A DNA stretch of 64,000 nt from Takakia lepidozioides (Eukaryota; Plantae; Bryophyta). The position numbers and the translations under genes are program-made. The stretch is taken from NCBI GenBank assembly GCA_030704615.1, contig CM060732.1:8990001-9054000 (forward strand), read 5' to 3'. A model generated the notes under the pieces. It was not told where the DNA came from. It saw only the letters and a program-made list of their open reading frames with translations, and did not search any database. Shown here piece by piece: positions 1 through 63,783 of this stretch (its first letter is position 1; every line of letters begins with the position of its first letter).

Positions 1-3000
1 CACAACAAACATGTCATTGCTGATGAACCCCCGCTCGTGGTTGCCCTGTGCAGAGCGTATCCGGCTGCAACCATGTCTGATTGCACAAACTTGTGTAGCT
101 CTTGCTCCTCTGCTCCAGTACACCACGGCCTTGTGGCTGAACACCTTGGTCCCCGGGGCTGTCTTTGGCTGTGTTCCAAGCCTAGCTTTCACCCACTTTG
201 GTATTTCACCTACAGCTGCAGAACTGCTGGCTCCAACAGAGTTCTGACTGTCCAAGGCAATATTGAGGCCCTCAATGCCAACTACAGCAGTCTGTTGTCT
301 ACTGCTAATGCCTGCCTCCCAGTATGCAATCAACTCGTCCAACTGTTCTCCACTCAAATCAGTCTGAGTTCCTTGGGAAACATAAATCATGTCCCCTTGT
401 GTGCACAGACTAAGAGAAGAGACCTGCCCTTCAATTACGTCCTCATTTCCCCCAGCCATGCAAGGAGTACATCCACCAATTTGTCTCTCATATAGACCAG
501 CACAGGTTCTAGAGACAGGATTGTGGATCTTTCATAGCACACTCACACTCTAAAAATTCCATAGATTTTTAACAGAGTCCCAAAAACAAAAACCAGGTCT
601 AGATATGTAGATATCCCCTTTCTGCAGCTATCTCCTCAAAAACTGAGTTAAACGGAGCTCATTTGACAAAGATATGACCAACCAGGCTCTTTAAACATTT
701 AAATTAGATCAAAAGGCCCTTTTTTTTTTAAAAAAAAAATTTTAATACTTGTCTAGGTTCCCTGTTCCCTGGTTATCTATGGGTTCCCGAGGCCGTTCCC
801 CGACTATGCTGACTCCAGGGCTTTGATCCTTTGCGCTTGAACCAAGTAGCTCCCTGACCCACGCTCGTATCACCAGTACACACCCCTGCTCGACAGGCTT
901 AGCACCCCATAGGCTTCCCTCAACCTTTACACTCTAGTGAAACAGGATACGACCAGGGTGAGCAACAAAGACGAAGGCTCTGCTCAGTTTAGGCTCTGCT
1001 CTGCCAGGTTGGACCTAATCGAAGGGGACGAAGGAGTCAGCGACATGCACATCCCTGACGAACAACACTTCGCTGACGACCAGGCACTCCAAACCAAGTC
1101 CGCACGAGACCAGATGGTGACCACCAACGATCGCCCCATGAAATGCAATCAATTGGAAGTCCCTATATCACCATTGTTTCCAAGTTTTGCCTGTGAAGAA
1201 GACCAGGCCGCGTCTTCCAGAGAGACAGAAGGCGAGACAGTGGGGTCAGAACAAGCCACCCTTGAATCCTGGCTGGTCAGATCAAGAGAGGGACAATCAC
1301 CGACTTGCAGGCACATACTTCGCCACCTTCATTTTTATATTTGAGAAGCAAACTCTTGGTAGCACACCCGTGACCGCCGGGACAGGAACCCGAGACGCAC
1401 ACTCCAGTCTCCCGCAGATGAGGAGCGACCACGGAATCCAGAGTATGCGCAAGTCTGGCAGATATTAGGTAGAGCATTCACTCCACCAGGCTGCGATTTG
1501 CACTTTATTAGCAAATCTCCTTAAACCTTCTTAGTCTTTCACTTGCGTTGGAAGCCATCGCCATCTCCTCGCTAAACCTTCGCATCTGTAGAGCTTGCCA
1601 CACTCTCCTTCCCCCACGAACGAACATCAGCCAATCCTCGAAGGCACTAGCTCTCAGCCCCCACTGCAATTGTAGATGGGCTACCAGGTGCTCCAACAAC
1701 ATGCGCTGAACCTGGAACCAGCTTCAAAAGGGCATGAACGTCGACCCCGAATCGGGCAGTCGAGCTGCTGAACCCGACCACTGACGGGATTGCGCTGCTC
1801 AAGGACAACAGGGCCTTTGTTATGGAGATGGCTTTCGGGATCAGGCTGCAAGGTAAGATTGAAAGGGCCTTTGGCGTGCTGGCATCCCCGGACTAAAGCA
1901 ATGCACCGCGACCCAGCCAGGCAGCAAGCTCCTCTTCCCACTCCTCCTTACTTTCTCACATGCAAGTTGAAGCACGACCCCAGTTTCAAGTTGAAGAATG
2001 AACGCTCAGCATTTGCAGAGAGCAGGCACTGGGCAGCATTGCCACGACCTTGCCAAGCACTCTACCGCGCTTCCTTCTTGTGACTGCCTCCATCCAATTA
2101 GCATTCACTCCCTTGCTGCCCCCGAGCCCCACACCTCCATACTTCTCTTACATCACCTTCTCCGCCATTCCATCACAGAACGGGCAATCGCAAAAAGGAA
2201 ATGCAGGAAGTGCAAGCGAGAAGAAATGGATTGCCAGACACTTGAGTCTCCGTCGTCAAAGCTGCATCAGCAAAGAAGACACAACGTCCGACGGAGATGA
2301 AGCACAGCGCTCCACACTCTGCCAACACCGAGCTCACAGACATCGCCATGCCACCTCCACCATCTTGTGTCTCCACGGCAAATTAAATTTTCTTTCACTA
2401 AGGAGATTGCAACCAACTCTCAATCCACTCTGCCAGGCCTCTCATTTCACTGCCTATGTCTGCATACTTAGTCTCGACATCTTGCGCATTTTCTCTTTTT
2501 CTCCGGCAGGTGCAGCAACAGCACCTCCACCAGAGGAAGCCACCACAACCAGGGATGATGCCACCCCAAACTGTTTGCACTTCGTGATCCAGCCACTCCC
2601 GACTGTTTTGGGTCCGAATCCAAAGCTTACACAAGTCTCGTCTCCCTCCGTCCAAGTGAAAGAGAGTAGGGAAGCCAACTATCAACGTCTTCAACCTCCA
2701 CACCTCTTGGTTTTCAAACTCACGAGCAGAGACGACAACTAAATCTGCGCGCACAGCCCATGGAAACAGCAGGGCCAGATGGACTCCCGCCCCAAGATAT
2801 ATATTATAATAATGCTAAAACAAACATTGTATCTAGCTTAGCACCAGCACACTAGATAACGCTCATCTTTCTCGAGTGATAGAAAAGCTCATTACACACT
2901 GTTGACACAAAACATGGAAACCAAAATCATCACTCTTTCAAATAGAAGTCGAGCCAGGGGCACCCCAAGCTATGGGGACTCCACCCCACAACAACCTACA

Positions 3001-4121
3001 CTCCCATCATAAGCACACATAGCTTCTAAACGCAGGAAGGAGCTCGGTCGCGCAGGCTCAACTCGAGAAAGATGAGCTGCGCAACTGCCGCTCTCGTGAA
3101 GATAAGACGGACCAGGTGTCAAACTAAACTTGACACCTGATTTAACACTTGACCTAAATCCAAGTGTTAAATACAAATAACTAGTTTTATTCTAGCTGTT
3201 TTCACACTGTGCTTATTTAACTTGACAATGACATACCCTCTTCTAGCCATCGCATGCACTCATAATGCTTTCTTCTATGGCAATAATGCACCTCTTAGAG
3301 ATCCTAATCCAGCCCTGCACTTGTCACTTCCATAGACATGCTCTTCCCAAGCTTGGGATTGAAACCCCAACTCAAAGCATGGTCTACAAATACACTATTC
3401 TGCCCCAAAGAGAAATCAGATGTCTACCTCCACTCATAGCTCTCCTAAGCTTGAAGTTGAAGACTCCCACAAGCTGAAACCATGCTCCACACATGCACCG
3501 CTTGCTCCCTTAACACCCGAGCTCTTCTTGAACTCCTCAAACCCTGCAACACTTGCAGAACAAGAGCTTCTTCACAAGCTCTCAAACTTTTCAATGGGGC
3601 TCTCCTTGAAGACCTCCTCTTGTACATAAACACCACAAAGCTTTCCTCTTGCAAACCTTGCAACACCTTGTAACTTAAGAGCTATCTACCAAGCTCTCCT
3701 CCACACAAGTGCTAACTATGCTAACACCTTGCACTCATCGATGTAAGCAAGTCTTCTTCTAGTGATACGAAAATGGTGAAAAAATGAGAAACCACTCTAT
3801 CACGTTATATAAGTCAAGCCAATGGCACCTTTGCTAAAGGACTCCACCATACAGACCTCACCCACTCTCCATCTCAAGTACTAGAGCTATGGCGGCGAGA
3901 GAGGCCTCGGGAGGCTCGACTAGAAAAAGACGAGCCTGCCTACGTCTCACGTGGAGATAACCTCCCCACGTCCCAAGTGAGGTTCGCCACCTCATTTGGC
4001 ATATGGAACCAAATGAAGTCCCAATGCCAACAAAATACAAATATAAATGTATAATGTCCTAATTAGTTATAAATAATTATTTCTAACTAATCACAAATAA
4101 AACCATGACAGACTTAAGATA

Positions 4122-37607: not shown

Positions 37608-38603
37608 CCAACGGAAGAAAATCAAGCACAAAAGGGTTGAAGTTTTCTCAAAACCGTTACCTGAGGCTAAATGCTTCTTGGTAAGCCTGGGCCCAACAAT
37701 TAAAGCTAACCACGCTTTAAACCTAGGCAACCAGCAGGACAGAATTACCTCCACGAGAACTATCGAGCGGCTTTTACTCACCCATCCCTTCGCTATCCGA
37801 GGTGGAAACTCCAAGATAGAAGAGTTGGATATCTCTAAGCACTCAGCCCGCTCAGAACAATCAGTCATGACCTACAGCTAGTGAATCATGGTTGTGCTTC
37901 CTATTTCTATTCTTTCTGGCCTTCATGTTATCAATTTACCTTACCGTGTATACTGAAGCATCAGATTGCTTCAGTATCTACTAAGTTCCAATTAATCATG
38001 CATTCATTCCACAGCTTCTCTCGTGTCTCTCTACACAGTATGTTTGTATCTATTCAGTATCGGATTAAGATTAATCATGTATCATGCCTATGCCATGGTG
38101 TCTCTAATCTACCCTACTGTATAATTTTACAGCTTGCATGAATTAAGCCTCAATCAAGTCATCATCTCCTCTTCACTGTCTCCGCTCTCCGTGTCTCCTC
38201 CTCAAGAAGTGATCCCCTTCCTGTTGCCGCTCTGCCTAATCTACCCGCAAGCTGTTTTAACCACCTAACTAACTAACCGTCACCCCTGAAGTAACACGTT
38301 CCCTCTGCAGATGTTGTTCCCTGTCAATGATAACTGTTCCCCATGTATTGTGACAGGCTGTGTCAAGCAGTGCCGAGCTGTGACTGGCTGTGTAAAGCTG
38401 TGTCGGGCTGTGACTGGCTGTGCGAAGCTGTGTCGGGCTGTGTAAAGCTGTGTCTTGCTGTGATAGAATGTGACGAGCTGTCTAACCCCCCTAAAGCCTG
38501 CGCCTGCCACCCCTAAGGCTCCTATTGGTCTCAGTCTGCGCAAAAATTAAGGGTACCCCACAAAACCCGTAAAAGCGTCCAAGTCCCAAGCAGCCCTCTA
38601 ACA
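37593..38603 (-). mobile_element. Probable 3' LTR (~1 kb) of a minus-strand LTR retrotransposon; PPT at ~38607-38620
   Basis: The minus strand reads ...gaggacacgactttttgagagggggagggataa|TGTTAG, a typical Gypsy PPT/LTR junction. The candidate far end is TGTAAC at 37593 on + (TG...CA). There is an internal GCTGTG-rich minisatellite at 38350-38480. The left boundary is tentative. Confidence 0.6.
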
Positions 38604-42508: not shown

Positions 42509-45500
42509 CTACTCTCCTACACCTTCCGAGGAACTTGGCCCTCCTTCTTCCTCATCCCCCTCATCCCCCCCATCCTCCGAGCTCTGTGATGCATTGGTTG
42601 CACTATGCCTCTCAAAAAATCCGTCCTCTCCTTGGGGGACTGTCCACCTCACCTCCTGGGAATCTTCTGCCTCTTCTCCCCCACTTTCCTCAGCAGAATC
42701 CAAGACAAATCTACGAGCCCGACGGGCTCTAATATCTGCTGCCTCCTCCCTCATCTTCATTTTCTTGAGGCTTGCCTCGTCTAAAATCTGTTGTACACGA
42801 CTAGGTTCGGAAGACCTCCTAATGGACACCGAAGCAAGCCGGGCAGCATAAGTAGGAAGGATGTAATCCCTTTCTGGACTAGGCATGAAATCCCCCCTGG
42901 CAAAAAAAGGCACGTTCCTCCTGCCCATGAACTCCGGTGTAGACGTCCCTCCTGCAGTACTTGGCATCCTACAGTAAGAACAAATCCACTTCAAGAATGT
43001 CAATACCAGCAGAAGCAGAAAGGGTTTTCAATGAAATAAGAGAGTGAAGGGAGGTGCCTCACGAAATCTGGAGGCAACTTACAATGCGACCACTCACTCG
43101 TAAACCGGGGGCTCCTCGGCCTCGATCCCAACTTGTTCCTCCCCCTGCTCCTTCTCGGATTTTTCCTCATCCTCCGAGGGTGCCTCTTCCTCTTTGGGCA
43201 GACGTTCAGCCGCTGCAAGTTCCGAGTTGTGGAGGGTAGTATCTGGCTCGAAGGCCAACACATGCCTGTCGGACAACGTCCCTGCCCACATTGAAGCACC
43301 TGAGGAGCAAAGCGGGCGGTTAATAGCTTGCGGCATGCAATTGCAATCGGGCCAGGGGACAAACTGAGCACGTGAAGGCTTACCCGTGCCGCATGTGAGG
43401 TCAAGAATCCGCCCTTGGACATCCGAGCACGTCTCCATGAGGGTTTGGATGAAAGCAGGGCTCCGGGTCCGGCTGTACCGCCACGGTTTGCCTGTCTTTG
43501 TGTCCTTCGGCATACTGGAGTGGGGCACATAGTTGTAGATGACATCGTAGGTAACAGGGTCCACAGCGGCATCAACAAGACGACTGTCGTTGCGGAATTT
43601 GAACGTAGACCCTCTCTTCACAAAGCAATATGCCTCAAACACCAATGTCTGCATATCCAACAAAAGAGGGATGAACTCCGGGATCTAGTTTAGATACACC
43701 ACAATATGAGGTGAATGCAATAGATTGATAACTTACACTTTGGCCCTCTGTTTGCAACCCCTATGTATTGATGCAGAACCATTTTCTGAGGAGGACCGGG
43801 GTGACACTTTTTGGTGTCCATCTTGCCACCACATTCTCTGTGGTCTTCCCTCTTGTGGCAAGGACAACCACACATCCACTGTCATCCAGGAGCATCCATG
43901 CCAGCCCAAACCCGGCTTTCCAGTAGTCCTCAGTAAACCTGTTCCAGTTGGGCACACCATCCAGGCCCTCAAGTAGCTCCCCATCTGGAATGTCAAGGAG
44001 AATCATATCGCAAGCTCTCTCCACCTCAACCCCCCCCGAGTGCTCTTGCAATCCGTGCTCACAGATGTGAAGAATTCCATCATGGCTTCAAAACCAGGGG
44101 TGTCTTTAGGCTCTGTACCGGCAGCCCTCTTCTTGGCTTTCCCCTTCTGCTCCGCCAGAGACTTGCTGTGTGCCACCTTCTTCGCCCTGGCAGCGAGAGC
44201 GTCAAGGAAGCTCTCATTGACGCATTGGATGATGGTTGGAGGTTCTAGCTTTGGCCTGTGCATAAACATCACCGCCGAATACCGCCGTGTAGGCTCGCCC
44301 TCAAATGCCAACTTCTTGGCAGAGCCAGTCCCACTCCGAACTGACTTGGGAACCCGGACGACCGGTGACTTGGTAGCAGCAGCAGCAGTCGCAGGACCTT
44401 GAACAAAGTCGTCGTCCGAGTCACTCCCTTGGGTCCCCTCCTGCGCCTCCTCCGATGCCCCGATGGTTTTCTATTTTTTGGGTGTTACTGTACTCACCTA
44501 TTTCCTTGTCCTTTTCCTTTGGCCTTTATTCTTCTCATTCAATTTCTCCTGAATTCCTGCCTGAGCAAGCTCTGCCGCTTTCCTAGAGTTTGCAAGCACT
44601 TTTGCCTCTTTTGGACCCAGCGGAGGCAGCGGAGCCCGGTTTCGTCGGGCCTCAACATTCAGCTTCAATTGAAACTCGGATGGGTTGAGCGAGTCGGGCG
44701 GAAGGTCCACATACCAAGGGCAATCACGCAAATGTTCCAGATGCCACTCCTTCACAATAACGTCAGTGTACATGGAGTCAGCCCCAGGATTCCTCCATGC
44801 CAGGAAGAATGGTGGCTCAAAAGACAGATGACCTTTCTCCAAAAGGGAGAACTTGCAGTACCTGCATTCATGAAAAACACAGAATGAGGTCCCTGAACTG
44901 GAAATTCGGCACCATTTTCCCAGGTTGGGGCGGAACTGCCTGGGCCTAGAACTGGGAAAATGGCGCCGAATTTCGGTTTTCGGTGCCAGCCACCCTAGGG
45001 ACTTAGCCATTTTGGGAGCCCTGAACTGGAAATTCGGCGCCATTTTCCCAGGTCTGGGCCGAAAATGGCTAAGTCCTTGAACTGACTGGCCCTGGAATTG
45101 GAAAAATGGTGCCGAATTTTGGATTCCGGTGCCAGCCACCCTAGGGACTTAGCCATTTTGGGAGCCCTGAACTGGAAATTCGGCGCCATTTTCCCAGGTC
45201 CGGCCCGAAAATGCCTAAGTCCCAGAACTGACTGGGCCTTGAACTGGAAAAATGGCGCCGAATTTCGGTTTTCAGTGCCAGCAACTCTAGGGACTTAGCC
45301 ATTTTGGGTGCCCTAGACTGGAAATTCGGCGCCATTTTTCGAAGGACCAATTTTTATGCGCCACATGAGGCCTCTAACATCCTGAAATGCAAGGACTTGA
45401 AAGGAAGGCATCGCGTATGTACCTATACAGAAGGCGCATTGCTGCTTTGTCCGCGTTCGGCTGGTCGGTGAACTCGTGGCTCCGGCGGGCAAAGAATAGG

Positions 45501-48042: not shown

Positions 48043-49055
48043 CAGCGTGCCGGGCTCGTCGTCACTCTGTCATTCCCGAAAATCGTGTGAACCAACATCG
48101 GAATGAAAACCACCATCCGCCACGAGCAGCGCAACCACCATCGCAACAATCGTGGAACAACAATGAAAACAAATCCAACCAATGCCTAAGAATGACATGC
48201 ACAAGCCTTCTCCAGAGCTGCCGGCTTTGCATACGCATTGCAAACTATCTAAGGTTCACTCAACCAGTAACTTGCAGAAATCAACATGAAACACGATGAA
48301 CAAATGAACACGAATTCCATAAGACGGGAAAACAAGGTGAAATGTTTTGAAGGCACTTCATCTGCTCAGACAATCTTCTCAGCTCAGCATGGATTTCCTT
48401 AATTCCGAGATGCAACTTGTTATCTACAGCGAGGTGTGCACCCTGTTCTGGCAAGCAATCTGAATGCAGCAACGACCTGGCTCCTTTCTAACCACTCTGA
48501 CCTTGATCATTCTTCTCAACAACTCATGCTTTTGCGATGCAACCATGCGCTTCCAAGGCTGCCAGGCGGAAGATGTGAAAACAAACTAAAAAAACGAAGA
48601 AAACCGAAAGAGGAAGGGGCGGAACCTGAGATTGCTCGGCTTCAGTTGGCGCGGGCTGTGAGCAAGACAATGGAATTTCCTGCTGGAGCTTAAGTTTGGC
48701 CATGCGAGAGGTTGGACGTCGCCCGTAGTACAAAGCCTTCAGCTTCCGCCGCGGTCTGGATGTGGGGTTTCTCTCAGGAGAGCCACGCCCTTCTCCACGC
48801 GGCATAAGTCCCAGCAAAAGATAAAAGATCTTGCAGTCTGTCTGCGTACATGCCTCGAATAGAAGTTCATCCAAGTTTAACATCAGGTTTCCAAGGCGTA
48901 TCCAGGAAAGCAAGCGCGGAATCCTTGTGTCGCTAGCCCGGTTCAAAACCGACGGCGGAGGACATTTAATGCGCAACTACGCCATTCAATGTCGTAGGTA
49001 TGGAGGTCGGTCAAGCGCCCACCCCCCCCCCCCGAGACTGCGTCAATCGCCCGCT

Positions 49056-49800
49056 GGATGGAAAAAATCGGCGCCGAATTTCCATCCAGCGGATGAAGTA
49101 TGATGCAACGAGGCCATTCCTCCGCCCGAGCCGTTCTCATCCAGGAGACGCCGGATGGAAATCCGGCGCCGCATTTCCATCCTGCAGGTAATTCGGAGCC
49201 CGGCCGGATAGAAAAACGGCGCCGAATTTCCATCTTGCAGGCAATTCGGAGCGCGGCCGGATGGAAATCCGGCGCCGAATTTCCATCCCAGAGGTAATTC
49301 GAAGCGCGGCCGGATGGAAAAACGACGCCGAATTTCCATCCCAGAGGTAATTCGAAGCGCGGCCGGATGGAAAAACGGCGCCGAATTTCCATCCTAGAGG
49401 TAATTCGGAGCGTGGCCGGATGGATATCCGGCGCCGAATTTCCATCCGCCAGGTAATTTGGAGCGCGGCCAGATGGAAAAACGGCGCCGAATTTCCATCC
49501 TACAGGTAATTCGGAGCGCGGCCGGATGGAAATCCGGCGCCGAATTTCCATCCGCCAGGTAAGTCCAAGCGCGGATGGATGGAAATCCGGCGCTGAATTT
49601 CCATCCGCCAGGTAATTCGGAGCGCGGATGGATGGAAATCCGGCGCCGAATTTCCATCCTACAGGTAATTCGGAGCGCGGCAGAATGGAAATCCGGCGCC
49701 GGATTTCCATCAAACAGGTAACTCGGAGCGCGGCCGGATGGAAATTCGGCGCCGAATTTCCATCCGCCAGGTAAGTCGAAGCGCCGAATTACCATTCTGC
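49056..49800. repeat. 53-bp minisatellite: 30-bp palindrome GGATGGAAAT(T/C)CGGCGCCGAATTTCCATCC plus a 23-bp linker, ~12 units
   Basis: Palindrome starts at 49153, 49206, 49259, 49312, 49365, 49418, 49471, 49524, 49577, 49630, 49683 and 49736, with an extra copy at 49056. Confidence 0.95.
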
Positions 49801-49984
49801 AGGTAATTCAGAGCGTGGCCGCTTGTTTTATTGGTCTAAAAAGACACAACCTTAAGTTTGAGACACGGTTTTCAGGGAATTCTCGACTGGTTGAGAGAAA
49901 TTCCTTGCTTCTTTTCCATCCCTCGTAGTTCCTACATGGAAATTCGTTGCCGAAATTCCATCTAGCCGCGATTGCGATTAAATG

Positions 49985-51035
49985 CCGAATGGAAATTCGG
50001 CGCCGGTTTTCCATCTGGCCGCGATCACGATTACATGCCGAATGGAAATTCGGCGCCGGTTTTCCATCCCCTCCGCCCGAGTCGACTTTATTCCGGCGCC
50101 CCCTGTTGGATATTCGGTGCCGAATTTCCGTCCGGGGGTTGTAATGTGATGGCCAGGTGCCGGCCTCTCCCCCCGAGCCGACTGCATCCGAACGGCCCCG
50201 GATGTAAATTCGGCGCCGTTTTTCCATTCGGGGAGGTTTTTATGTCGGCCAGTTTTCGGCCTGACCCCCCGACACGACTTCCTTTGGGGGGGCCCGGATG
50301 GAAATTCGGCGCTGAATTTACATCCGGGGGATGTTCTCTGTCGGACAGGTGCCGGCCTCTCCGCCCGAGGCGACTTCATCCGGGCGGCCCCTGTTGGATA
50401 TTCGGTGCCGAATTTCTGTCCGGGGGTTGTAATGTGACGGCCAACTGCCGGCCTCTCCCCCCGAGCCGACTGCATCCGAACGGCCCCGGATATAAATTCG
50501 GCGCCGTTTTTCCATTCGGGGAGGTTTTTATGTCGGCCAGTTTTCGGCCTGACCCCCGACACGACTTCCTTTGGGGGGGGGGCCGGATGGAAATTCGGCG
50601 CTGAATTTCCATCCGGGGGATGTTCTCTGTCGGACAGGTGCCGGCCTCTCCGCCCGAGGCGACTTCATCCAGGCGGCCCCTGTTGGATATTCGATGCCGA
50701 ATTCCCGTCCGGGGGTTGTAATGTGACGGCCAACTGCATCCGAACGGCCCTGGATGGAAATTCGGCGTCATTTTTCCATCTGGGGAGGTTTTTATGTCGG
50801 CCAGTTTTCGGCCTGACCCCCCGACACGACTTCCTTTTGGGGGGCCCGGATGGAAATTCGGCGCTGAATTTCCATCCGGGGGATGTTCTCTGTCGGACAG
50901 GTGCCGGCCTCTCCGCCCGAGGCGACTTCATCCGGGCAGCCCTTGTTGGATATTCAGTGCCGAATTTCCATCCGGGGGTTGTAATGTGACGGCCCGGTGC
51001 CGGCTTCTCCCCTTCAGCCGACATCATCCGGGCGG
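49985..51035. repeat. ~289-bp GC-rich tandem repeat (~3.5 units), each with about 3 variants of the same palindrome
   Basis: ccctgttggatattcggtgccgaattt-like at ~50101, 50389, 50678 and 50941. Confidence 0.9.
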
Positions 51036-51873: not shown

Positions 51874-53660
51874 TTATTGAGCCTCGGTACTTGAACCTAA
51901 AGAAATATTGGAGGTTTCAGAGGAACCACTTCCAGAGTTTACAGCAATATCATCTATGAATACAGCAGCACATCCATGACGTTTTTTTTTTCCACGACCT
52001 TTATGGAGATGCGAATACAATGTTTGTTCGGATAACACCCGTGCGCAAGCTTCCGCGTAAACCGGCAAGCGGTTGGATCTAGGGGGGCTCGGGGACATGT
52101 AGTATCCTTGGAAACCGAAAGATGTCTGCTGATTCGATGACTGGTGCTGAATGGTGGTAGATATTAACATCCAGATATAGACAACGAAAGCCACTATTTC
52201 TCGAATGGGAACGACACAAGGAAATGCAACATATTTTGCACGACTACACAAGAACTTACTCACACTCAAAATCAGAGTCCACGACCAGATCCTCGTCAAG
52301 CGCTTCGGGCTCCTCCAGAAGTCCCTCTGTGGATGGGGCAGAAGTAGTGCCCGACTCAAGCTGACGAAGCTCGCTTGAGAAGAGCTCCGTATCAGCTTCC
52401 ATGCCGAAGAAGTGCCTTCCGGCGCTCTTGCAAGCATGAAAACATGCTCTCGCAAATCCAAGAAGAACGAGAAATAAAAACAGGGTTTCCCTAAGGTCAC
52501 TGCCCATATGTCAAACACAATGTGAAGGGCCCCACCTGTGCCCATAGACAAGTCAACCACTCGTCCACCACGACGGCTGCATGTCTCCACCAAAGTCTGC
52601 ATGAAAGCTGGAGATTTCTCCCGTGCACCTCTCCAAGGGACACCAATTGACCTTTTCATAGTCCGACCCGAGTCGACGTAATTGAAGATAACATCATCCT
52701 CCACAGGCTCGCAGGTGGGGTCAATGTGAGCTGCAAGGTCCCTCAACTGAAACTCAGCAACACCAGCAGGAAGAGTGTCCTTCCGCCTCACCAGGCACAA
52801 AGCTTCGAACACCCGTGTCTGTCAATAATCACGAAGAGAGAATGAGACAGAAGACATAACCCACCATTTTGATTTACCGAAAACCACGAAACATCAATTG
52901 AAAGGAACCAACTCACTTTCTGCCCCGGGAACTCGCCCTTCGTAAGAGGCAGAGTATTGATGCATGTCCAAGTTTTGATGACACGAAACCCGGAAGCTTT
53001 CATGTAGCTGAAAAGAGTTCTTCGAGCCGACATGTCCTTTGACTGCATGAGAAGAAGAGCCCCCGAGTCCGAAAGGAACTTGTTGCTGAACGAGAAAGCC
53101 CACTGCCAGTAACGAGAATCCGATTTGTTCCAAGTCGGGGTCGAATTGGAAGGAAACACATCAGGGACAGGAAAACCGTCAGGAATGTCCAGCACCACAA
53201 GGTCAGTCGCGTATGCCTGCTGAACTCCATTCACCCATTCCGGACTTTTTGTGACCTACAGCCAAAAACATGAGACAGTGTAAGAAGCCCAATCCAAATC
53301 TAACAGGAGATCAATCCCCTGGACAAGCCACAACAAGCTGCCAAAACACAATTATTCATACAACAGTTTAGACATAAGTGTTCACCTGAGTGAGGAACGA
53401 AACAAGCATGTCCCATGATTTTGAGGGCACCCCTTTGAATGTGGACTTCCTGGACTCCATCATTGCAAAAAAACTTTCATTCAGCACCTTACGATTGAAC
53501 TGGCCCAAAACCCTGGAGGGATGTTCTCTCGCCTCGAAAACTTGCTCCCTCGACTTTGATGTTCTCCTATCCCTCCTTGTGGGAGAAGGCTGTCTTTCAG
53601 GAACCTCTGACGGTCCCTGTCCTTGCGGAGCTGCACTTTTCCCCTTCCCCTTACTAGTAT
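51874..53660 (-). pseudogene. Divergent paralogue (copy B) of the beta-class MTase-like domain, 5'-truncated, with introns
   Basis: DLVVLDIPDGF...FLSDSGALLLM...WTCINT...WRGAREKSPAFMQTLVETCSRRGGRVVDLSMGTG^ACFHACKSAGRHFFGMEAD. Intron positions match copy A. Confidence 0.75.
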
Positions 53661-54110: not shown

Positions 54111-55039
54111 ATGCAGTGTCTGTAACATCGTTTTGTTTCAGCAACATCACATACGTAGCGCATTGGGCCCCGACTCTCACCTACGTGGCGCTCTGGCATT
54201 GGTGGTGAGGTATAGCTGTGAGAGCTCAAGTTCCTTTCATTGTTCCCTATCAAGCTTAACAGACTATCTGTGGACATTACAAAGTATTATCTTTTCTTCC
54301 TGTCTTTCTGTCCCTCTCTGATCCTTGACAGAGGCTGAGCCTGATGCCGTGGCCCTGTTGGGATCTAACTTTTGGGCTGCTCACACACAACAGATTGATG
54401 CTTGTGTGAAGGGCTTTCTCGAGGATATATGGGAAGCCCGAACTAATTGTTTATATCAAGGTAATTCACACTATGGGGTGAGACCCTCACAAAGGTAGTG
54501 CCTATTCCTTATGTTTCTGTCCAAACTGGGCGGGGGGTCTATGGCCACAAGGCAAACAAGGGCTTATGTGTACATCCTAAACCTTGACAGAGTTGCTTAC
54601 AAAGTCACTATTATTCACAGTACAATATCATCACTATACACGTGCACATATTGTCACTAACCCTATAAAATGACTCGGTGACATTTGTTCAGGACCAGTA
54701 AGATCAAAACCTTGCAAAATGTACTATTACTTCATCTCTTTTCACATCTCTCTCTCTGAAATAAACACTCTGTGTAGTGTTTAAGGTTTGCTTTCATCTA
54801 TGGCTTCAGTGGTTTTACTGTGCTGTTCTACCATGTCCCATGGACTCTCTGGGCCTCCAGTGGACGTAAGCAATCTCTTCTGCTCCTCTCCTCTCATGGA
54901 CATTTAAACTCAGTAATTTCGATCTCTTTCCCATCACAGAGGCCCTTTTGGTTTCCAGTGGATGTAATTCTTTTTGTCTTTTCTTTCTTTTCCCCTATTC
55001 TCTTCCCAAACGAAATGACAACACAAAATAATTCAGATT

Positions 55040-55225
55040 TAATACCGTTGCACACCTGTTCAGCAAATTCAGAGCCAGGGCCTCTTGTCCTTCCTTGATG
55101 GAAACCACAGTGCCATCCTCCAAAAGCCCTTTATAGACCAGGCCAAATGCACCCTCCCTAATCAAAATACTTGAGCTAAAATTCTTTGTTGCATGTTCTA
55201 GTTCGTCCAAGCCAAATTGGTGCAC
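55040..55225 (-). pseudogene. RLK/Pelle receptor-like kinase exon fragment (subdomains I-II)
   Basis: FGLDELEHATKNFSSSILIREGAFGLVYKGLLEDGTVVSIK. The G-loop is degenerate (IREGAFG), a frameshift follows the catalytic K, and no downstream kinase exons were found. Confidence 0.8.
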
Positions 55226-57627
55226 TTGCTAGGGATTCGCAACTGCAGCCAACATGCCTCCCACCAACGGTGTCTCGGGCCTCTTGACCTTGCCCACTGT
55301 CACTCACTATCTTTGCCAGCAAGTTCAATCATAAAATATTGTCAGAAGGGAGGAAATGAAAACAGACTACTTCAACGGCATACAACAATAGTTTGTAGTG
55401 AGGGGCGTAGGGAAAGGGTAACTGCCTGTAAGTCGAAGGGAGGTGATGAGGGAAACACGGGAGAACCCCATGGGCAAGACAAGGAAATTGGGGTTTTGTG
55501 CTCAAGGAACGATGGCGGACTAGCTGGATGAAATCACGATTTATCATTGGAGTTAACAGGATGAAATTGACAAATGTTCATCAGTGGATGGATGGTGGAA
55601 AAATTGGATAACAAGCAGGGATGAGATCACTAATTGGCATTAGTGGATGGATGACGAGCTAGCAGGATGACAGGGCGATGAAAGCACCAATGAGAAAGTT
55701 GATTCTTCATCACATGGGGATGATACTGCAGAAATAAGACAAATGACTCAACGGTGATTTAGTGGAGAGAGTGGCCACAATAATATTAGCTAGGTGGCAC
55801 TAAGATAAAGGGTGGATAGAAGGAGGTACACGTCGCCGTAAGATGTATTTAGCAACAATCAGGCTTGTGGCACAGAGGGGAATAATACCCAGTGGCCACT
55901 AAGTCTTCAAGCCTAAGGTTATAGCTGGTTAAGTTGTGGGGTCTAGTTATTAAATGATCACGTGGAGTGGCGGCATAGATAAGACCAAGTTTATGATCAG
56001 GTCAGGTATAAGACGAGTGGTTGCGCATAGTTAGCTCTCTCAGATTTTTGGTACCAGCTTACGTTTCTTCTGGCAGTAAAGCATGGAGATTATCATCATT
56101 ATGAAGTGAGCACTAGAATCAGCTTGGTGTGAAGGAGAATGTATCCATTAACATAGAGATGGTGTTATGATGATTAGTTAAAGTGTTTTGTGAGGCCTAA
56201 TTCTCATGCATCGAAGCATCTGATTTGCGTTTATACAAAGAGGAGGTGCAGGCTTAGCTAGCATGCACGATACGGTTGTGTACTAAGAATAGTGAACTGA
56301 TACCAATATGTAGTAGGGTAGTTTCTCCATGCACTTCTCTGCAAAGTCAAGTTAGACATATGTATTAATACTGGAGCAAGGCATCAACACTAGAGGGGCG
56401 GAAGTAAGCATCACGGGCAGGCCTCGTGCGACCGGTGAATGGTGCAAACACAGATATGAAAGTGAATGAAGCAACAAGCTCAAAGGCATTTGGTCACCTT
56501 CTAGGGATGATAACAAAAGAAGACAAACAATGTGTCTAGACAAATCTCAATGACGAATCTCCGTTTGTGCCAGGTTTTCTCTTCCGCTGCAGCCTGGGAT
56601 AAATGGTGTACTGACTGGATGGATTGTCATGGGTTGTAGGCCCCTTCTTTTTACGTCCCTCCGGCTTCCTCCACGCAGCCACCCTCATCGGCTCACAGGC
56701 AGGCTTTGACGACTTGTGCTTGTAATTGATGATCATCTTGAAGACTCTCCCAATCTCCAGATAAGAAACGGCGAAGGCGGATGCACGTCTCTCTATGACC
56801 TGACTTACCGCCACGAGGGGGCAAAACCAAATACCACTGAGAAAATAACAAGAAAAAATACCACACTGGTATATCACCAGGATCACGAGCCAGCCTGTCT
56901 AAGGGTAGACAGAGTGCCAGTTGGACCTCATGATGTAGTGCCACCGGGATCCTTGTAAAAAAGACGAGGCCTTGGCAGTCCTAATGGAAATGCGCCCTGC
57001 AATACATCTAGAGTTGAAAGCCAATGCCATGCAGAGGCAAGAGGTGGTGCGTGAAAGACACTGGGCTGAATGGAGGAGTACCTCTATGTGGGACTGATGA
57101 AGAGCCGCACACGTGTGCTGATGTTGCGCAAAAAGACGACCGCAAGCTGGGCACGGGGTATGGTCTGCAGGGATAGGCGCCTGTTGTTGGGGGAAGAGTG
57201 ACGGGGTCGTCGATGTAGGCTGCACAACTGGAGAAGATGGCGCGTGAAGAGACTCATGACCAAGAGAAGTTGGGGATGCCTTGGAGCCGCTGCCGAGAAC
57301 CCGGGGGAGAAGTGACTGGTGTGGGACCTCGGACCCTACCTGAGAGGCGCAGTGGGAGAGAGCTCAACAGACACGGTGCAAGTTCTTCGATCGGTGTGGC
57401 GCCAGTGGAAGAACTTGGAATCCGATGTGGAGAAGACCGTTGTGAAGAGGAAGAATCTTCTTGAATTTGTCTGGAGCTTGGGCTCTGGTGGTACGCATCA
57501 TGAATATGTGATATGGGGATAGGAGTATTGTGGCCCTGGGGCCTTCCAACATGAGCAGTCGTGGCCATGTCCAACACCTCTCGTTGCAATGGGAAGCCAA
57601 CTGGCACAAATGGTGGAATAGGCCGTA

Positions 57628-57903
57628 AGGGAGATTTACTATTTCATGAGCAGAAACCATGAGCCATGAGCCATGAGCCGCATGAGCCACATGAGCGGTG
57701 AGCCAAAGTCTAAGACACGCGGATTCCATGAGCGGACTCCTCCAAATTTGGAAATGCGGCAGATTAAAAAAGTATTAAAATAATAGTTTTTAATTTGACC
57801 TTGCCGTTTTTGGAAGTTCCAGATCTTGTAACGCAGCGAAGATATGTCGTCAGTAACAGCTCCGCTCATGGTTTTTTAGATCCGCTCATGGAAATGAGTG
57901 ACC
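57628..57903. mobile_element. Short MITE-like relative of the CATGAGC-terminus element
   Basis: Left end is taa|gggagatttactatttcatgagc plus (catgagc)n. Right end is the inverted ccgctcatgg...ccgctcatggaaatgagtg. Confidence 0.45.
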
Positions 57904-58543
57904 GTGCAACGAGAAATCCAGTATACCACGACAAAAGGACGTCGCATACTGGCCTGTATAGAGTATTCCGCGGTTTTACATGCCTTAACATTGGAATGAA
58001 GCTGACCCTTCTGCCGCGATTGAACCAATAGAGTTTGCACCAATAGAGTCTGCAGTACTTCACAATTCTGTCATCTTCGGGTATTCGGCGGGAAAGGTTT
58101 GCGACTCAACTAGGAAATGCGGTGCCGCATTAGGGTTCGCACGTGCGAAATTTCTGGGGGGTTTGGTGTTGGCGACGGTCGGCTCCCTGAAGGCTGGGTG
58201 CGACTATCTTGCTATGACGAAGGCCGCAACTACCAGTACCTACGACTTTACTTGGAAATGCGGCGCCGAATTTCCTTGCCGGGGGTCGAATGAGGAAAGC
58301 AAAGTTTGGGAGAGCAGAAAAACAGGAACCCTCCAACAAACAAAAATACAAGCACGTGGAAACAATAATGAATGACAAACTATTATCTTATCTTAGTTCG
58401 AGCAAAACAAGTTACTGGTAGGCAAGACATAAGTTGGACCTTTCTGTGGCCAGAGTCAGAGGTACTTGCAGCAGTACAGTTCTACTATAACTGAAACTCC
58501 GAAAAGGATGAGCGTACCATTGTGTGGGGACCGCAAGCCAAGC

Positions 58544-59370
58544 TCACTGGTCCCCTGGATCCATATTCAGAAGAGTGCACACCTCTTGGGGGCTCAACCT
58601 TGGTGCATGTATGAAGTGATGAGTTGTGGAATTACACCGGAGTCTCTTTAGGTACACGTAGTACAGATGCTTGCAAGGGCAGTATGGTGCCCCCTTGTTC
58701 GCCATGATCTGGAAGTCGGTGCAATTGTAGGTGGGTAATTCTGAAATGGTGATGGTGTACACCTCATTGCAAACAACTGAGCTTGTCGTGGCCATCTGAT
58801 ACACACGCCCGAAGCCTGGTGGGGGCACTTCTGTCGAGCTCTGGATTGTACAGTTCATCCGAAGTGCATTCCCCATCCTTGTCTCGTTCACTTTTGAGGG
58901 AGGTCGTCGCCTCTTCGGTTTCCCCCAACGGTGTGTAGGATGCTTAGAGCTGTCGTGTCCCATTGTTCTTGCTCTCACAGGGGTCGGTAGTGGAGGCTCT
59001 GAAAGCGAAAATGGTTGTCTGGGGACGTCAGTGCGCTGCACCATCCGAAATCCTGCGGCAGTAAGGCGTCGGCCTCAACCTGACTCAGATCGCAGCTTGG
59101 TTCCACTGGCCACACCGGGGGAGCCTCTGGCATTGTTTGTATGCCATACTTGGGCTTTCCATACATGCAAGTCATAATGTCGTGCCTGCAGAACCAGAAC
59201 TGGATGGTTGTCGCCTCCGCAAACTTTGCATGGACAAATCTTCCGGAAGATCAAATGGGGAGGGGTTTACGACGCCAGCCGCGCCCCCACGCCCCGAGCG
59301 TGCAACGCCAACCCCGCGGAGTGTGTTTGCGACGCCGGGCCGTCGTAGCCAAACCCCACGGGAGTGAAAC
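58544..59370 (-). pseudogene. SWIM zinc-finger-containing ORF fragment (transposon-associated)
   Basis: YTITISELPTYNCTDF...PCKHLYYVY fits the SWIM CxC...CxH motif with the first Cys changed to Tyr. Frameshifted upstream. Confidence 0.7.
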
Positions 59371-59384
59371 CTGGACTCGGGAGG

Positions 59385-61786
59385 TATAGGCCACTGCGGG
59401 TCTTGTTGGACTCGGGAGCACAGCCATTGATGTTGGGGGGAGCAGCAATTGCAGGCTTGGGCCTTACAGAGGCGGATTTGGAGCTTTGCCCTTTCCAAAT
59501 TCAAACATCTTTGGGCGGTTCAGAGAAGGCATGAGGGATTACATGCCATGAGCTCTTCATTCGATTGCAGCCAGATCATCTTACAAATGGCTCTGTCATG
59601 AGAGCTAAAGCCATTGTTACGGACGCGATGTCTTATGATGTGCTTGTTGGTGGGGTTGTGTTATACCCGATGGGTTTTACTTTGGACTTTTGGGAAGAAA
59701 CGACATCCTACAGGCCGGAATGGCAGTCAGGGGATGGTCGACATACACTGCTCCCAGTGCGGTTTATTGGGAATGTAGCGGTGGATCATAGGAACATGAT
59801 GCCCACATTGGCTGCATTCTCAGGGGTGGTGGCTTGGGGTGGTGAGCTTTTGGAGGGTAATAGCCATGCAGATGATAGGCCACCACCTGATAAGGACAAA
59901 CAATTGGCATACAAGGCTGATTTTCTTCCTCATGTGCCTGTTCATATTCCACTGTGGGGTACAGTTGGGAATTTGCATCGAGTAGCAGGCGAGTGTGTGC
60001 ACCAAGCATGGCAGGAGGCCTATCCATTGGTGAGTGAGGGGAGTTCAATGACATCACCCGGACCTCCTCAGTTAGCTCATTTGGACACAATGCCCATTAC
60101 CTGGCAACCACTTGACTCAGGGATTTGTTTGCTAGACATGTTTGGAGGCATGAGCACTTGGCTTGCAGGAGTGTTGTAAGCAGGGATTAAAGTATGCAAG
60201 TACTTGTATGTGGAGAAGGATGAGATAGCTCGGCGTATTTCTATGCGCTACATCGCCTTGCTCACACACCGGTATCCTAAGTTGTTGCCTCTCTCAACAA
60301 TTCAAGGGTATCAAAAGGCCTTGCCAGCAGACATTACCTTGCTGGGGGCGGATGATTTGGACCGGCATGGTGCCATTGACTTGGTGATAGCTGGATGGCC
60401 TTGCCAATGACACTCTCCCGCAGGTCATGGGAATGGCTTGCATGATGCACGATCGCATTTGTTTTGGGAGATGTTGAGAGTGTTGCGTGACTTGCAGACG
60501 AGGCAAGTGCAACCTCTAGCCTATATCTTTGGAGAATGTTCCTCTTATGGGGGACTCTCGGGCCAGGGTTATGGCCAGTGTGCATCAGGTGCGGTCTTGG
60601 ATTGGATCGGCGGTGCTATTGGATGCAGCAGCGGTGGGATCACGAGCGCATCGACCTTGATTGTGGTGGACAAATCTTGCACCACCAGAGCTGCTCAAGA
60701 GAGCATACGATTCCATTCAACGGCCATCCAATCTCACAGTTGAGGGCATTTTGGACCAAGGGAGGCAACCACAGAGGGTGCAACATGATGACCGTCCACC
60801 TTTAGCAGTGGTAGATCGAGTGGGGCAGCCACGTGCAGCCTTGCCTACGTTCATGAGCTTTCCCTCGTCTCATGCTTTTTGAGACAACGGTCCTGGGTTG
60901 ATTTGGGACAGTGTGCTACAGCAATTGGTGGAGCCCAATGCGGATGAGTGAGAGTGGGCAATGGGATTTACCACCGGCACTACAACTGTGCCAGCTCTGT
61001 CAGAGGCATTACGATGCCAGGTGTTGGGTCAGGAAATGGATCTCAATTGCTTGACATGGGTCATTGACTTGTGCATGGCTGAGCAACGGAGATTGCAAGC
61101 ATTGGTGGCTACTTCTGCACTTCCATTGGATATTGCACCATCTCTGCCAACCGGGACGGTGGAGGCAGTGAGTGGGGGCGAGCACAAGATCATGGGGTGC
61201 AAACACCCATGACAGATGTGGGATGAGATGCGCAAAGAGAGAGTCATTGGATCTCTCAAGCAGCAGTATGAGGAGTGGGGAGAGCCATACACTGAGGATC
61301 GGTTGGAGGCCAAGGTGGCCAATGTTTTTGAAGAGGTTGAGAATGTTTCTTCCCCAGAGGATGTTCTCAAGGTGGCTATGGCGGAGCAAGTGGAGGCTAC
61401 GCCACGGTCAGGGTGGGCGGATAAAGCCCAAGAGGTTGCTATCTAGCAACCAAAGGATGCGTCTCTTACTTCCAAGCCTGGTGTACCCAAGGTTGCAGTC
61501 ACTGAGGACAACTGGGAACCAGATGTTGGACCTACAGTCACCGGAGGAGAGAGGTGGAGGATCCAGCGATTTCTAAGGGCTTATAGAAATTGCTTTGCCT
61601 TCGGTTTGAAGGATTTGGGGAGTTTGAAGGGCCAAGAGATTTGTATTGATTTGGCAAGTGACACGCCAATTTTTCGAAGGCCCTACAAGTATAGTGATAT
61701 GGAGAGGTCTTTGATCCAGTCACGGACTATGGAGTTGTTCGAAGCTGGATTGGTGGAGTTGTCAGGCGGGGAGTATGCCTCGGCAA
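59385..61786 (+). mobile_element. Decayed Ty3/Gypsy-like pol fragment: aspartic protease - C5 DNA methyltransferase - RT N-terminus
   Basis: Protease VLLDSGAQPLMLG (~59400) and YDVLVG. The DNMT motifs are at 60120-61050. The RT start CFAFGLKDLG...IDLASDTPIFRRPYKYS...ELFEAGLVELSGGEYAS is cut at ~61786. Confidence 0.8.
60120..61060 (+). pseudogene. DNMT3-like cytosine-5 DNA methyltransferase domain inside a retrotransposon pol
   Basis: Motif I LLDMFGG, II YVEKD, IV IDLVIAGWPCQ, LFWEMLRVL, VI ENVP (after a frameshift), VIII AHRP*LWWTNL, IX E*EWAMGF and X LGQEMD, all in canonical order. Confidence 0.9.
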
Positions 61787-63559
61787 GGGGGCTGCTATTT
61801 CATGAGCGGCATGAGCGTGAGCGGAAAAAAAAAAAGCATGAGCGGACCATTGTGTGTCCACGAAAATAGGGTTAGGAGGCACGGAAATAGGGTCATGTGA
61901 AGTTGGAATGTGGCACCAATGGACTCGTCATAGCAATGAAATGCAACATTTTATTGCAAGGCGAAGGCGAAGACATGCCTGTCGGACAACGTCCCTGCCC
62001 ACATTGAAGCACCTGAGGGACAAAGCGGGTGGTTAGTAGCATGCGGCATGCAATTGCAATCGGGCCAGGGGACAAAATGTGCACGTGAAGGCTTACCCGT
62101 GCCGCATGTGAGGTCAAGAATCCGCCCTTGGACATCCGAGCACGTCTCCATGAGGGTTTGGATGAAAGCAGGGCTCCGGGTCCGGCTGTACCACCACGGT
62201 TTGCCTGTCTTTGTGTCCTTCGGCATACTGGATTGGGGCACATAGTTGTAGAGGACATCGTAGGTAACAGGGTCCACAGCGGCATCAACAAGACGACCGT
62301 CATTGCGGAATTTGAACGTAGACCCTCTCTTCACAAAACAATATGCCTCAAACACCAATGTCTGCACATCCAACAAAAGAGGGATCCACTCCAGGGTCTA
62401 GTTTAGATACACCACAATATGAAGTGAATGCAATAGATTGATAACTTACACTCTGGCCCTCTGTTCGCAACCCCTGCGTATTGATGCAGAACCATTTTTT
62501 CAGGAGGACCGGGGTGACACTTTTTGGTGTCCACCTTGCCACAACATTCTCTGTGGTCTTCCCTCTTGTGGCAAGGACCACCATACATCCACCGTCATCC
62601 AAGAGCATCCCTGCCAGCCCAAACCCGGCTCTCCAGTAGTCCTCCCTAAACCTGTTCCAGGTGGGCACACCATCCAGGCCCTCCAATAGCTCCCCATCTG
62701 GAATATCGAGGAGAATCATAACGCAGGCTCTCTCCACCTCACCCCCCCCCCCCCGAGTGCTCTTGCAATCCGTGCTCACAGCCGTGAAGAATTCCATCAT
62801 GGCTTCCAAACCAGGGGTGTCTTTAGGCTCTGTAGCAGCAGCCCTCTTCTTGGCTTTCCCCTTCAGCTCCTCCAGAGACTTGCTGTGTGCCACCTTCTTC
62901 GCCCTGGCAGCCAGAGCATCAAGAAAGCTCTCATTGACGCATTGGATGATAGTTGGGGATTCTAACTTTGGCCTTTGCGGAAACGTCACCGCCGAATACC
63001 GTTGTGTAGGCTCGCCCTCAAATGCCAACTTCTTGGCAGAGCCAGTCCAAGTCCGAACTGACTTGGGAACCCGGACGACCGGTGACTTGGTAGTAGCAGC
63101 AGTAGTCGCAGGACCTCGCACAAAGTCGTCGTCGGAGTCACTCCCTTGGGGCCCCTTCTGCGCCTCCTCTGGTGCCCCGGTGGTTTTCTGTTTTTTGGGG
63201 GTTACTTTACTCCCCTGTTTCCGTGTCCTTTTCATTTGTCTTTTATTCTTCTCATTCAAATTCTCCTGAATACCTGCCTAAGCAAGCTCTGCCGCTTTCC
63301 TGGACTTGACAAGTGCTTTCGCCTCCTTTGGACCCAGCGGAGGCAGCGGAGCTCGGTTTGGTCGGGCCTCCGCATCCAGCTTCAATTGGAACTCGGATGA
63401 GTCGAGCGAGCCGGGCGGAAGGTCCACATACCAAGGGCAGTCGCGCAAATGCTCCAGATGCCACTCCTTCACGATAACGTCAGTGTACATGGAGTCAGCT
63501 CCAGGCTTCCTCCATGCGAGGAAGAATGGCGGCTGGAAGGACAGATGACCTTTCTCCAA
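61787..63559 (-). mobile_element. Second, internally deleted and truncated copy (C) of the CATGAGC-terminus MTase-like element, inserted into the RT
   Basis: Collinear with 42298-42450 and then 43250-44841 (about 800 bp missing). Retains VMILLDIPDG and ILDLTCGTG. Confidence 0.9.
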
Positions 63560-63783
63560 GTGGATGCATGACGTGTAGTGAGTGGCTTAAGGGCAGAGTG
63601 ACGTGGATGCATGTAAAGTGGTTTAACTGAAGTGGAACTTATTGACTATGTTCCATGATGTCTAGTATACGGTTTGACTGTAAATCAGTGATAGTGAGTT
63701 TGCTTGACTTTGTATATTTTAATATTCTACTGTGAAGCAGTAAAAGAGGACACATTTTTGTAAATATGTTTCACTCTGGAGGT

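Follow-up and report, generated by a model that had tools for sequence, protein, structure and literature searches.

A dead Gypsy-DNMT3 fragment in Takakia lepidozioides and the possible loading of retrotransposon particles with a methylase through a leaky stop codon

The window analysed here, a stretch of 64,000 nucleotides from Takakia lepidozioides, contains on its forward strand an internal fragment of a Gypsy-DNMT3 retrotransposon (59380..61795). It belongs to the old (A) subfamily and shares 93–95% DNA identity with six other copies across 2286–2424 bases, its ends falling at 59380 and at 61786–61798. Read in the frames 59349–60530 and 60532–61788, with X at the stops, the fragment comprises an aspartic protease region (59388..59771, +; LLDSG motif at 59388–59420, one stop at 59532), a linker (59772..60122, +), a DNMT3-like C5-cytosine methyltransferase domain (60123..61075, +), an in-frame TAG followed by CAA CCA, a context of the CARYYA type (61444..61452, +), and the start of a second frame, consisting of a spacer and the reverse transcriptase N-terminus (61453..61786, +; YRNCFAFG at 61582 to GGEYASA at about 61786). 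With the motifs found at these positions, the same-strand order protease-DNMT-RT proposed by an earlier sequence-only reading is confirmed. The full set of C5-MTase motifs is equally borne out, from the FGG of LDMFGG (60123–60152) through YVEKD (60207), GWPCQ (60393), ENVP (60532), HRPxLWWTNL (60649) and AMGF (60955) to GQEMDLN (61027). The Pfam scans that had been suggested gave a mixed answer: DNA_methylase (PF00145) matches the window copy above the cut-off (E 4.3e-9), but the aspartyl protease profile (Asp_protease_2) stays below it both here (E 0.056) and in one relative (E 8.8e-5), so that the protease is identified here by its DSG motif and its position, and the window's short RT piece gives no match. 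This RT piece is 93–95% DNA-identical to copies continuing into RVT_1, RNase H, integrase and PHD, and has 86% amino-acid identity, over 43 codons, to the RT of the young (B) subfamily. The doubt whether the DNMT is really flanked by protease and RT is thereby removed.

The copy is dead, as the earlier reading had held. It carries seven decay stops (59532, 60177, 60408, 60658, 60880, 60949 and 61210) and one frameshift near 60531; five of the stops and the frameshift lie in the DNMT domain. An eighth stop, the TAG at 61444–61446, is separate from these and is a conserved feature of the family; therefore, DNMT and RT do not form one open frame. Both edges of the fragment adjoin unrelated repeats, the RT being cut at about 61790 by one of them, and the fragment's gag, end repeats and remaining RT are absent from the window and the next 30 kb. 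Separate from the fragment are the 5′ end of a young-subfamily copy (2809..3227, −; A1 plus putative self-priming site), whose 5′ region is found also at 1–828 and whose TAG region lies 5 kb before the window, and an old-subfamily A-type repeat (3788..4110, −) that is 78% identical to its counterpart in a full-length A copy.

Other features of the window include repeated ORFs with methyltransferase-like motifs (DLVVLDIPDG, VVDLSMGTGG, ILDLTCGTG) at 51874–53255, 61951–63586 and 43000–45148, all on the minus strand and with no Pfam match. One of them (52791–53255) has Rossmann/amino-methyltransferase-like neighbours at 0.86–0.92 in a protein atlas, and the stretch 61962–63559, in the repeat that begins where the Gypsy fragment is cut, is 92% identical to 43249–44842. 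This repeat is possibly a DNA transposon carrying an N4/N6-type methyltransferase. Another repeat (57631–59244, −), with a SWIM-like CxCxnCxH motif seen by eye (ORF 58544–59074) and no Pfam match, is 90% identical to a stretch interrupting repeat A of a family copy at 2.65 Mb of contig C1. Host gene exons are found at 14279–14806 (+; Pfam C2), in a protein which we take to be of the MCTP type, and at 54995–55577 (−; receptor-like kinase fragment, by eye). At 24383–37495 a 3.3-kb unit stands four times in tandem, nearly identical each time, and overlaps a plant gene region; this is either a real duplication or an assembly artefact. Arrays of 53-, 96- and 10-base units lie at 49044–51028 and 38349–38488. 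A second Gypsy pol fragment (RNase H; 21538–24311, +), in which no DNMT was seen, was used as a control.

The genome (325.6 Mb, four large contigs) was searched with the domain, giving 40 scored DNA matches at 92–100% (of 2028 candidates) and 141 scored protein matches (of 3707 candidates). These 141 carry the DNMT, contrary to the case, envisaged earlier, of other copies lacking it. The Gypsy family amounts to hundreds of copies in this genome and comprises an old subfamily A, that of the window, 82–100% identical to the query and mostly with stops, and a young subfamily B, with 76–77% identity to the query (26 rows) and stop-free in the matched stretch. Exact 31–32-base patterns at the DNMT-RT joint count at least 611 B and at least 117 A copies. 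Six A and ten B copies were read at length. The B copies measure 11.6–12 kb, and their A repeats are 99–100% identical within the copy in seven of eight cases and about 97–100% in seven further pairs, which indicates recent insertion. Full copies have the order Gag-protease-DNMT, TAG CAA CCA, RT-RNaseH-integrase-PHD: Gag is marked by two zinc-knuckle motifs (by eye), Pfam finds RVT_1, RT_RNaseH, Integrase_H2C2, rve and a C-terminal PHD finger in succession in a young copy, and the same domain order was read in one old full-length copy. The Gag-PR-RT-RH-INT order and the DDE integrase are those of Ty3/Gypsy elements. None of the ten young copies read has both frames open, the first being open in three and the second in three; where the repeats of a copy are identical, its single-base indels may stem from errors of the assembly. 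Full-length copies, for which the sequence-only reading had proposed a search, thus exist, but they have split repeats and a stop between DNMT and RT in place of the single open frame. That reading, though supported, had overlooked the PHD finger, the split repeats and the stop, which is likely programmed. Three further observations concern single groups of copies. A sense-strand open frame of 258–279 codons lies about 1.3 kb before gag in seven of the ten young copies and gives no alignment to the old subfamily; in three cases a young 5′ end and a 3′ end with the same 4-base flank lie on opposite strands, owing either to inversion or to mis-oriented contigs; and an E-class PPR gene lies beside one family copy.

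The identity of the methyltransferase was assessed with the domain of the young subfamily. Its best PDB match is DNMT3A (7.6e-11 from the single sequence, 5.9e-17 from a profile), followed by DNMT3B/C, DRM (6e-8) and HhaI (6e-6). The structure model predicted from a 75-row alignment (pLDDT 96.5, as against 35 for the single-sequence fold) resembles DNMT3A/B with Z 29.6 and an rmsd of 2.3–2.5 Å over about 270 residues, compared with Z 24.0 for HhaI, and Foldseek matches it to DNMT3A/B over its whole length at 8.9e-20. Sequence and predicted-fold rankings put DNMT3 ahead of DRM, DNMT2 and bacterial enzymes as the nearest relative of the domain, in support of the DNMT3-like assignment made earlier. 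Its C5-MTase motifs are unpermuted, as in the DNMT3 family, with catalytic PC and ENV present. The catalytic C, the ENV glutamate and asparagine, and HR are near-invariant in 75 sequences; motif IV reads GWPCQ in the clade of the Takakia element and often GWECQ in distant clades. Comparison of B with seven A copies yields a dN/dS for the DNMT of 0.08–0.11 in all seven pairs (0.10 for the window copy), similar to Gag and protease (0.11 in the window) and lower than in the linker (about 0.2; 0.22 in the window, at 52% amino-acid identity to the young subfamily) or the tail (0.6), these values being rough because dS, at 1.7–2.8, is near saturation. They indicate that the DNMT domain is under purifying selection. 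De novo cytosine methylation is its putative activity. The observed/expected ratio of CpG is 0.44–0.54 in the element and 0.43 in the control Gypsy of the window, so that no special footprint of self-methylation (CpG loss) is seen against this one control. Differences among old copies are concentrated at CG (0.18), followed by CHG (0.10) and CHH (0.05), for which host methylation is a sufficient explanation.

The stop between the two frames is not a product of decay, since it is kept as TAG in 596 of 611 young copies and 114 of 117 old copies. A further 13 young copies have TAA, bringing the stops to 609 of 611, and one has TAT; CAG, AAG or GAG was found in none of the 611. No ATG lies near the stop in the copies of this genome. 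The feature extends to metagenome loci (79), in 20 of which, belonging to a peat-moss-like clade, the first stop after the domain is TAG (14) or TAA (6), followed by CAA CCC ATG (CAA CTC in one). Three loci with 49–51% DNMT identity have TAG CAG TTA or TAG CAA TCA, and one of them consists of frames of 1369 and 1047 codons with a single stop between. In ten loci of a more distant clade (about 40%) DNMT and RT are not separated by a stop, and the remainder are incomplete or broken; as this distant clade also has GWECQ, both the stop and the PC motif are missing from part of the relatives. The Gag-PR-DNMT database proteins of Marchantia, Calypogeia and unnamed sources end 80–170 residues past the domain. 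In one assembled-contig set, guessed to be RNA, a contig spans the stop without a gap; it was not counted as evidence.

In gammaretroviruses the stop comes directly after Gag, whereas here it sits after Gag-protease-DNMT. The element shares the stop and its six-base context with tobacco mosaic virus (TMV), whose signal UAG CAR YYA gives 6–32% readthrough in plant assays and, as far as the available part of that article describes it (PMC2754532), sets how much of an upstream protein is made relative to its polymerase extension, as it would here. CAR-YYA is kept in three lineages with differing encoded residues (QP, QL, QS). From this pattern, programmed readthrough of the TAG between Gag-PR-DNMT and RT-RH-INT-PHD appears likely, in which case the methylase would be produced as abundantly as Gag, and RT and integrase in a fraction of that amount. 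The peat-moss-like context, CAA CCC, is not of the CARYYA type, is followed by ATG and also fits re-initiation. Folding of the 130 bases after the stop in four sequences, without shuffle control, revealed no obvious shared structure.

At the ends, the copies have the layout A1 (about 350 bases), internal region, polypurine tract, B1 (about 87), two bases, A2, B2. The element starts with TGTCA and ends with GACA, the tract AGGGGGG precedes B1, and 4-bp duplications outside A1 and B2 are exact in seven of nine young copies and occur also at two old copies and three metagenome loci. TG...CA termini, a short target duplication and a polypurine tract are all Ty3/Gypsy features, but two complete co-linear end LTRs are lacking, the layout being A...B-nn-A-B. 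Four loci from distant clades have the same split layout and keep the junction CACGACA-nn-TGTCA, and split repeats and DNMT co-occur in all long loci examined. The NCGN preference described for Phygy is absent from the target duplications. The position of the polypurine tract before B makes B-nn-A the probable true LTR. We sampled 30 B-gc-A junctions and 30 A repeats, two overlapping sets from the start of contig C1; the young subfamily has 344 junctions and 850 A starts in all. All 30 junctions follow a polypurine tract, and 28 continue into B2 and none into the internal region. The A repeats divide into 17 of the form host-A-primer site (5′ ends) and 13 of the form tract-B-A-B (3′ ends), and none of the 30 is a 5′ end with B in front of its A. 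If a free circle with two LTRs were cut with equal chance at either internal site, mirror-image insertions would be expected, and this symmetric model is rejected because such forms are absent from both samples (0 of 30 each). Integration likely proceeds via the internal site of the left LTR of end-joined cDNA, which accounts for the only product seen. The A2-B2 join is mostly precise. Remnants of the tract or bases of the internal region are sometimes found in it, which is what a join newly formed by end joining would show.

A primer-binding site follows the 5′ repeat, as in other Ty3/Gypsy elements, and is not tRNA-like by eye; no tRNA genes lie near it, which is uninformative on priming. 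In 16 of 20 cases the 10–19 bases after A1 are complementary to a stretch about 150–185 bases into A, the match being weak or absent in four. Compensating changes occur within the young subfamily and between families, and control windows gave no match in 200 each. This complementarity points to self-priming of the Tf1 type at the end of A1.

The closest named relatives of the family are bryophyte proteins at 69–75% identity, from Marchantia polymorpha, M. paleacea, Calypogeia fissa and two Sphagnum species (up to 75%); the M. polymorpha members, e.g., Mp_4g09160 and Mp_8g17980, are annotated as hypothetical proteins. Distant named relatives are found in Closterium, Haematococcus and Chromochloris (30–42%), and the protein relatives found include no Klebsormidium sequence by name. 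Two family members (P0050 and P0224) are labelled bacterial MAG proteins in NCBI and are likely plant or algal DNA in bins. Among 131 long proteins with the domain, 36 have the order RT-DNMT-INT-PHD and 28 are Gag-DNMT, and in green-algal relatives the DNMT is mostly placed between RNaseH and integrase. In the RT tree (49 rows, midpoint-rooted), elements with the DNMT before the RT form one clade (support 1.0), within which four stop-bearing rows are a subclade (0.82). In the DNMT tree (122 rows, midpoint-rooted), both Takakia subfamilies stand together inside a clade with bryophyte sequences (0.97–1.0); support is weak at the deep nodes of both trees. The genome search with PF00145 returned only element-like matches, the 123 scored ones all spanning the same short profile stretch, and therefore yielded no host DNMT3 to include. 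RT and DNMT distances correlate (rho 0.39, 0 of 999 permutations). The sequence-only reading had offered both persistence in and independent origin within embryophytes. As one DNMT family spans bryophytes, Closterium and chlorophytes, and RT and DNMT distances correlate, persistence is the better supported of the two. These data fit a family that has long resided in the green lineage and whose domain moved once; horizontal transfer would also be compatible with them.

Our literature search, which mostly lay outside subscription journals, retrieved no account of the family in land plants, of its stop or of its priming; a prior description could sit in Repbase reports, theses, or the figures and main supplement of PMC5890265, which were outside this search. 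The available portions of PMC9033089 and PMC11982613 hold nothing relevant to the family, and the 96-genome table of PMC5890265, in the form accessible to us, has no Marchantia row. The closest published element, described by de Mendoza et al. (2018; PMC5890265), is KnitGypsy-Dnmt3 from Klebsormidium nitens, which the Takakia element resembles in the way it works and with which it probably shares its ancestry. According to the accessible text, KnitGypsy-Dnmt3 has DIRS-like repeats, given in the authors' reply as A1/A2 around the ORFs and two B around A2, and its DNMT lies in the Pol frame. Both elements combine Gypsy domains, an intronless DNMT3-like domain, purifying selection and DIRS-like split repeats, the repeats being compared by figure legend and authors' reply only. 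They differ in that the DNMT of the Takakia element ends the Gag-PR frame before the stop, whereas that of KnitGypsy-Dnmt3 is joined with RT and RNase H, an arrangement found here in the more distant clade. The Takakia element differs further in its land-plant host and its hundreds of copies; PHD finger, 4-bp duplications, self-priming and internal integrase site go unmentioned in the accessible text of PMC5890265.

SymbioDIRS-Dnmt3 likewise has a DNMT3-like domain within a retrotransposon, two domain positions among relatives and split repeats, as far as the same text shows. However, DIRS elements use a tyrosine recombinase and no DDE integrase, whereas the Takakia element has a DDE integrase (rve) with H2C2 zinc finger, and 4-bp duplications. 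The EpiLTRs of Cymbomonas and Euglena (bioRxiv 10.64898/2026.05.21.726589) likewise combine a cytosine methyltransferase and a chromatin reader in an LTR element, but in the part of that preprint available their DNMT is sister to DNMT4 and accompanied by DAM and a chromodomain; it names ‘streptophytes (Gypsy-DNMT3)’ as a distinct earlier case, there without detail. Tf1 and Tcn1 share a primer site complementary to an LTR stretch but have ordinary LTRs, with a chromodomain in Tcn1 and no mention of a DNMT in the accessible part of the source (PMC6317226). Chlamydomonas Gypsy-7a similarly has a PHD finger in a green-lineage Gypsy polyprotein but ordinary LTRs, DNMT being unmentioned in the portion available (bioRxiv 10.1101/2022.06.16.496473). 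REXdb, by the available description, was built from elements with target duplications adjoining both LTRs (PMC6317226) and would therefore exclude the split-repeat form.

We propose, with a probability of about 0.6, that the dead fragment derives from an element whose leaky TAG loads particles with the methylase, which likely methylates the cDNA before insertion; cDNA self-methylation was proposed by de Mendoza et al. (2018), as the accessible text of PMC5890265 shows. Transcription would start inside repeat A, and the 5′ end of the RNA would pair with the 13–19 bases right after A1, allowing Tf1-like priming free of tRNA. Readthrough would yield Gag-PR-DNMT in excess of RT and integrase, and the protease would free the methylase in the particle. 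The right end of the LTR, B-nn-A, would be joined to the start of the left LTR, and integrase would cut CACGACA/nn/TGTCA of the left LTR only, leaving A...B-A-B. Marked by the methylase, probably at CG, the cDNA would give a new copy that resembles host chromatin or is protected from nucleases, and the PHD finger may guide target choice.

The same anatomy could serve a methylase whose main work comes after cDNA synthesis or is independent of it, its targets being the integrated copy, competing elements or host chromatin, for instance to keep the element's own activity in check. Made in bulk together with Gag, the enzyme would also be available in free form, the PHD finger ties the element to chromatin, a host-benefit reading is raised in the accessible text of PMC5890265, and host moss DNMT3b is, from what is available of PMC6453930, a de novo CG/CHH enzyme. 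We nevertheless regard this as unlikely, since fusion to Gag and protease would place the methylase in the particle and algal relatives have their DNMT between RNase H and integrase, among cDNA-bound enzymes. It is quite unlikely that the domain is retained for binding DNA or RNA or for a structural role, e.g., holding cDNA ends, with catalysis secondary: the near-invariant catalytic C, ENV glutamate and asparagine, and HR, together with a full DNMT3 fold and SAM-binding motif in the predicted model, speak for an enzyme. Such a role would nonetheless agree with the GWECQ of many relatives, the lack of extra CpG loss and the constant association of split repeats with DNMT. The accessible text of PMC5890265 reports that the isolated Klebsormidium domain did not methylate yeast DNA, a result its authors call inconclusive, and that SymbioDIRS-Dnmt3 domains methylate CG de novo in yeast.

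The stop could also be real without being read through, RT-integrase arising instead, in the manner of Ogre, by splicing or re-initiation. Ogre has an intron between Gag-PR and RT in the available part of PMC6317226; the ATG three codons past the stop in the peat-moss-like clade would suit re-initiation. However, a single in-frame stop without spacer, the retention of CAR-YYA in three lineages and the lack of an ATG near the stop in this genome make such expression very unlikely for the Takakia copies. Finally, the dead and truncated state of the window copy might suggest that a host DNMT3 gene was captured once, at this locus or in this lineage, and has been decaying ever since; hundreds of copies in two subfamilies, purifying selection and relatives across green plants refute this reading, and its probability is practically negligible.

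Particle loading through a leaky stop, followed by cDNA methylation, thus remains our preferred reading. The anatomy is well supported, and the element is a variant that is new in its stop with respect to the published KnitGypsy-Dnmt3; the function of the methylase is suggested by sequence and model. More tentatively, and with some doubt, the family may represent an old green-plant Gypsy clade that combines leaky-stop loading of DNMT3, self-priming, an integrase cut internal to the left LTR and a PHD reader, and that, with its hundreds of young copies, is a source of de novo cytosine methylation in bryophytes. Such a clade would have been overlooked because LTR finders need a target duplication beside both LTRs; standard LTR annotation misses the copies, which also swamp DNA-methylase counts in such genomes. 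Split LTRs together with a DDE integrase imply an integration route unlike the textbook one. Why a transposon keeps an enzyme that normally silences it has been an open question since 2018, in hosts that were hard to handle. The leaky stop, if true, predicts both the amount and the place of the methylase, and the presence of the family in Marchantia polymorpha opens cDNA methylation, readthrough and target choice to testing in a model plant.
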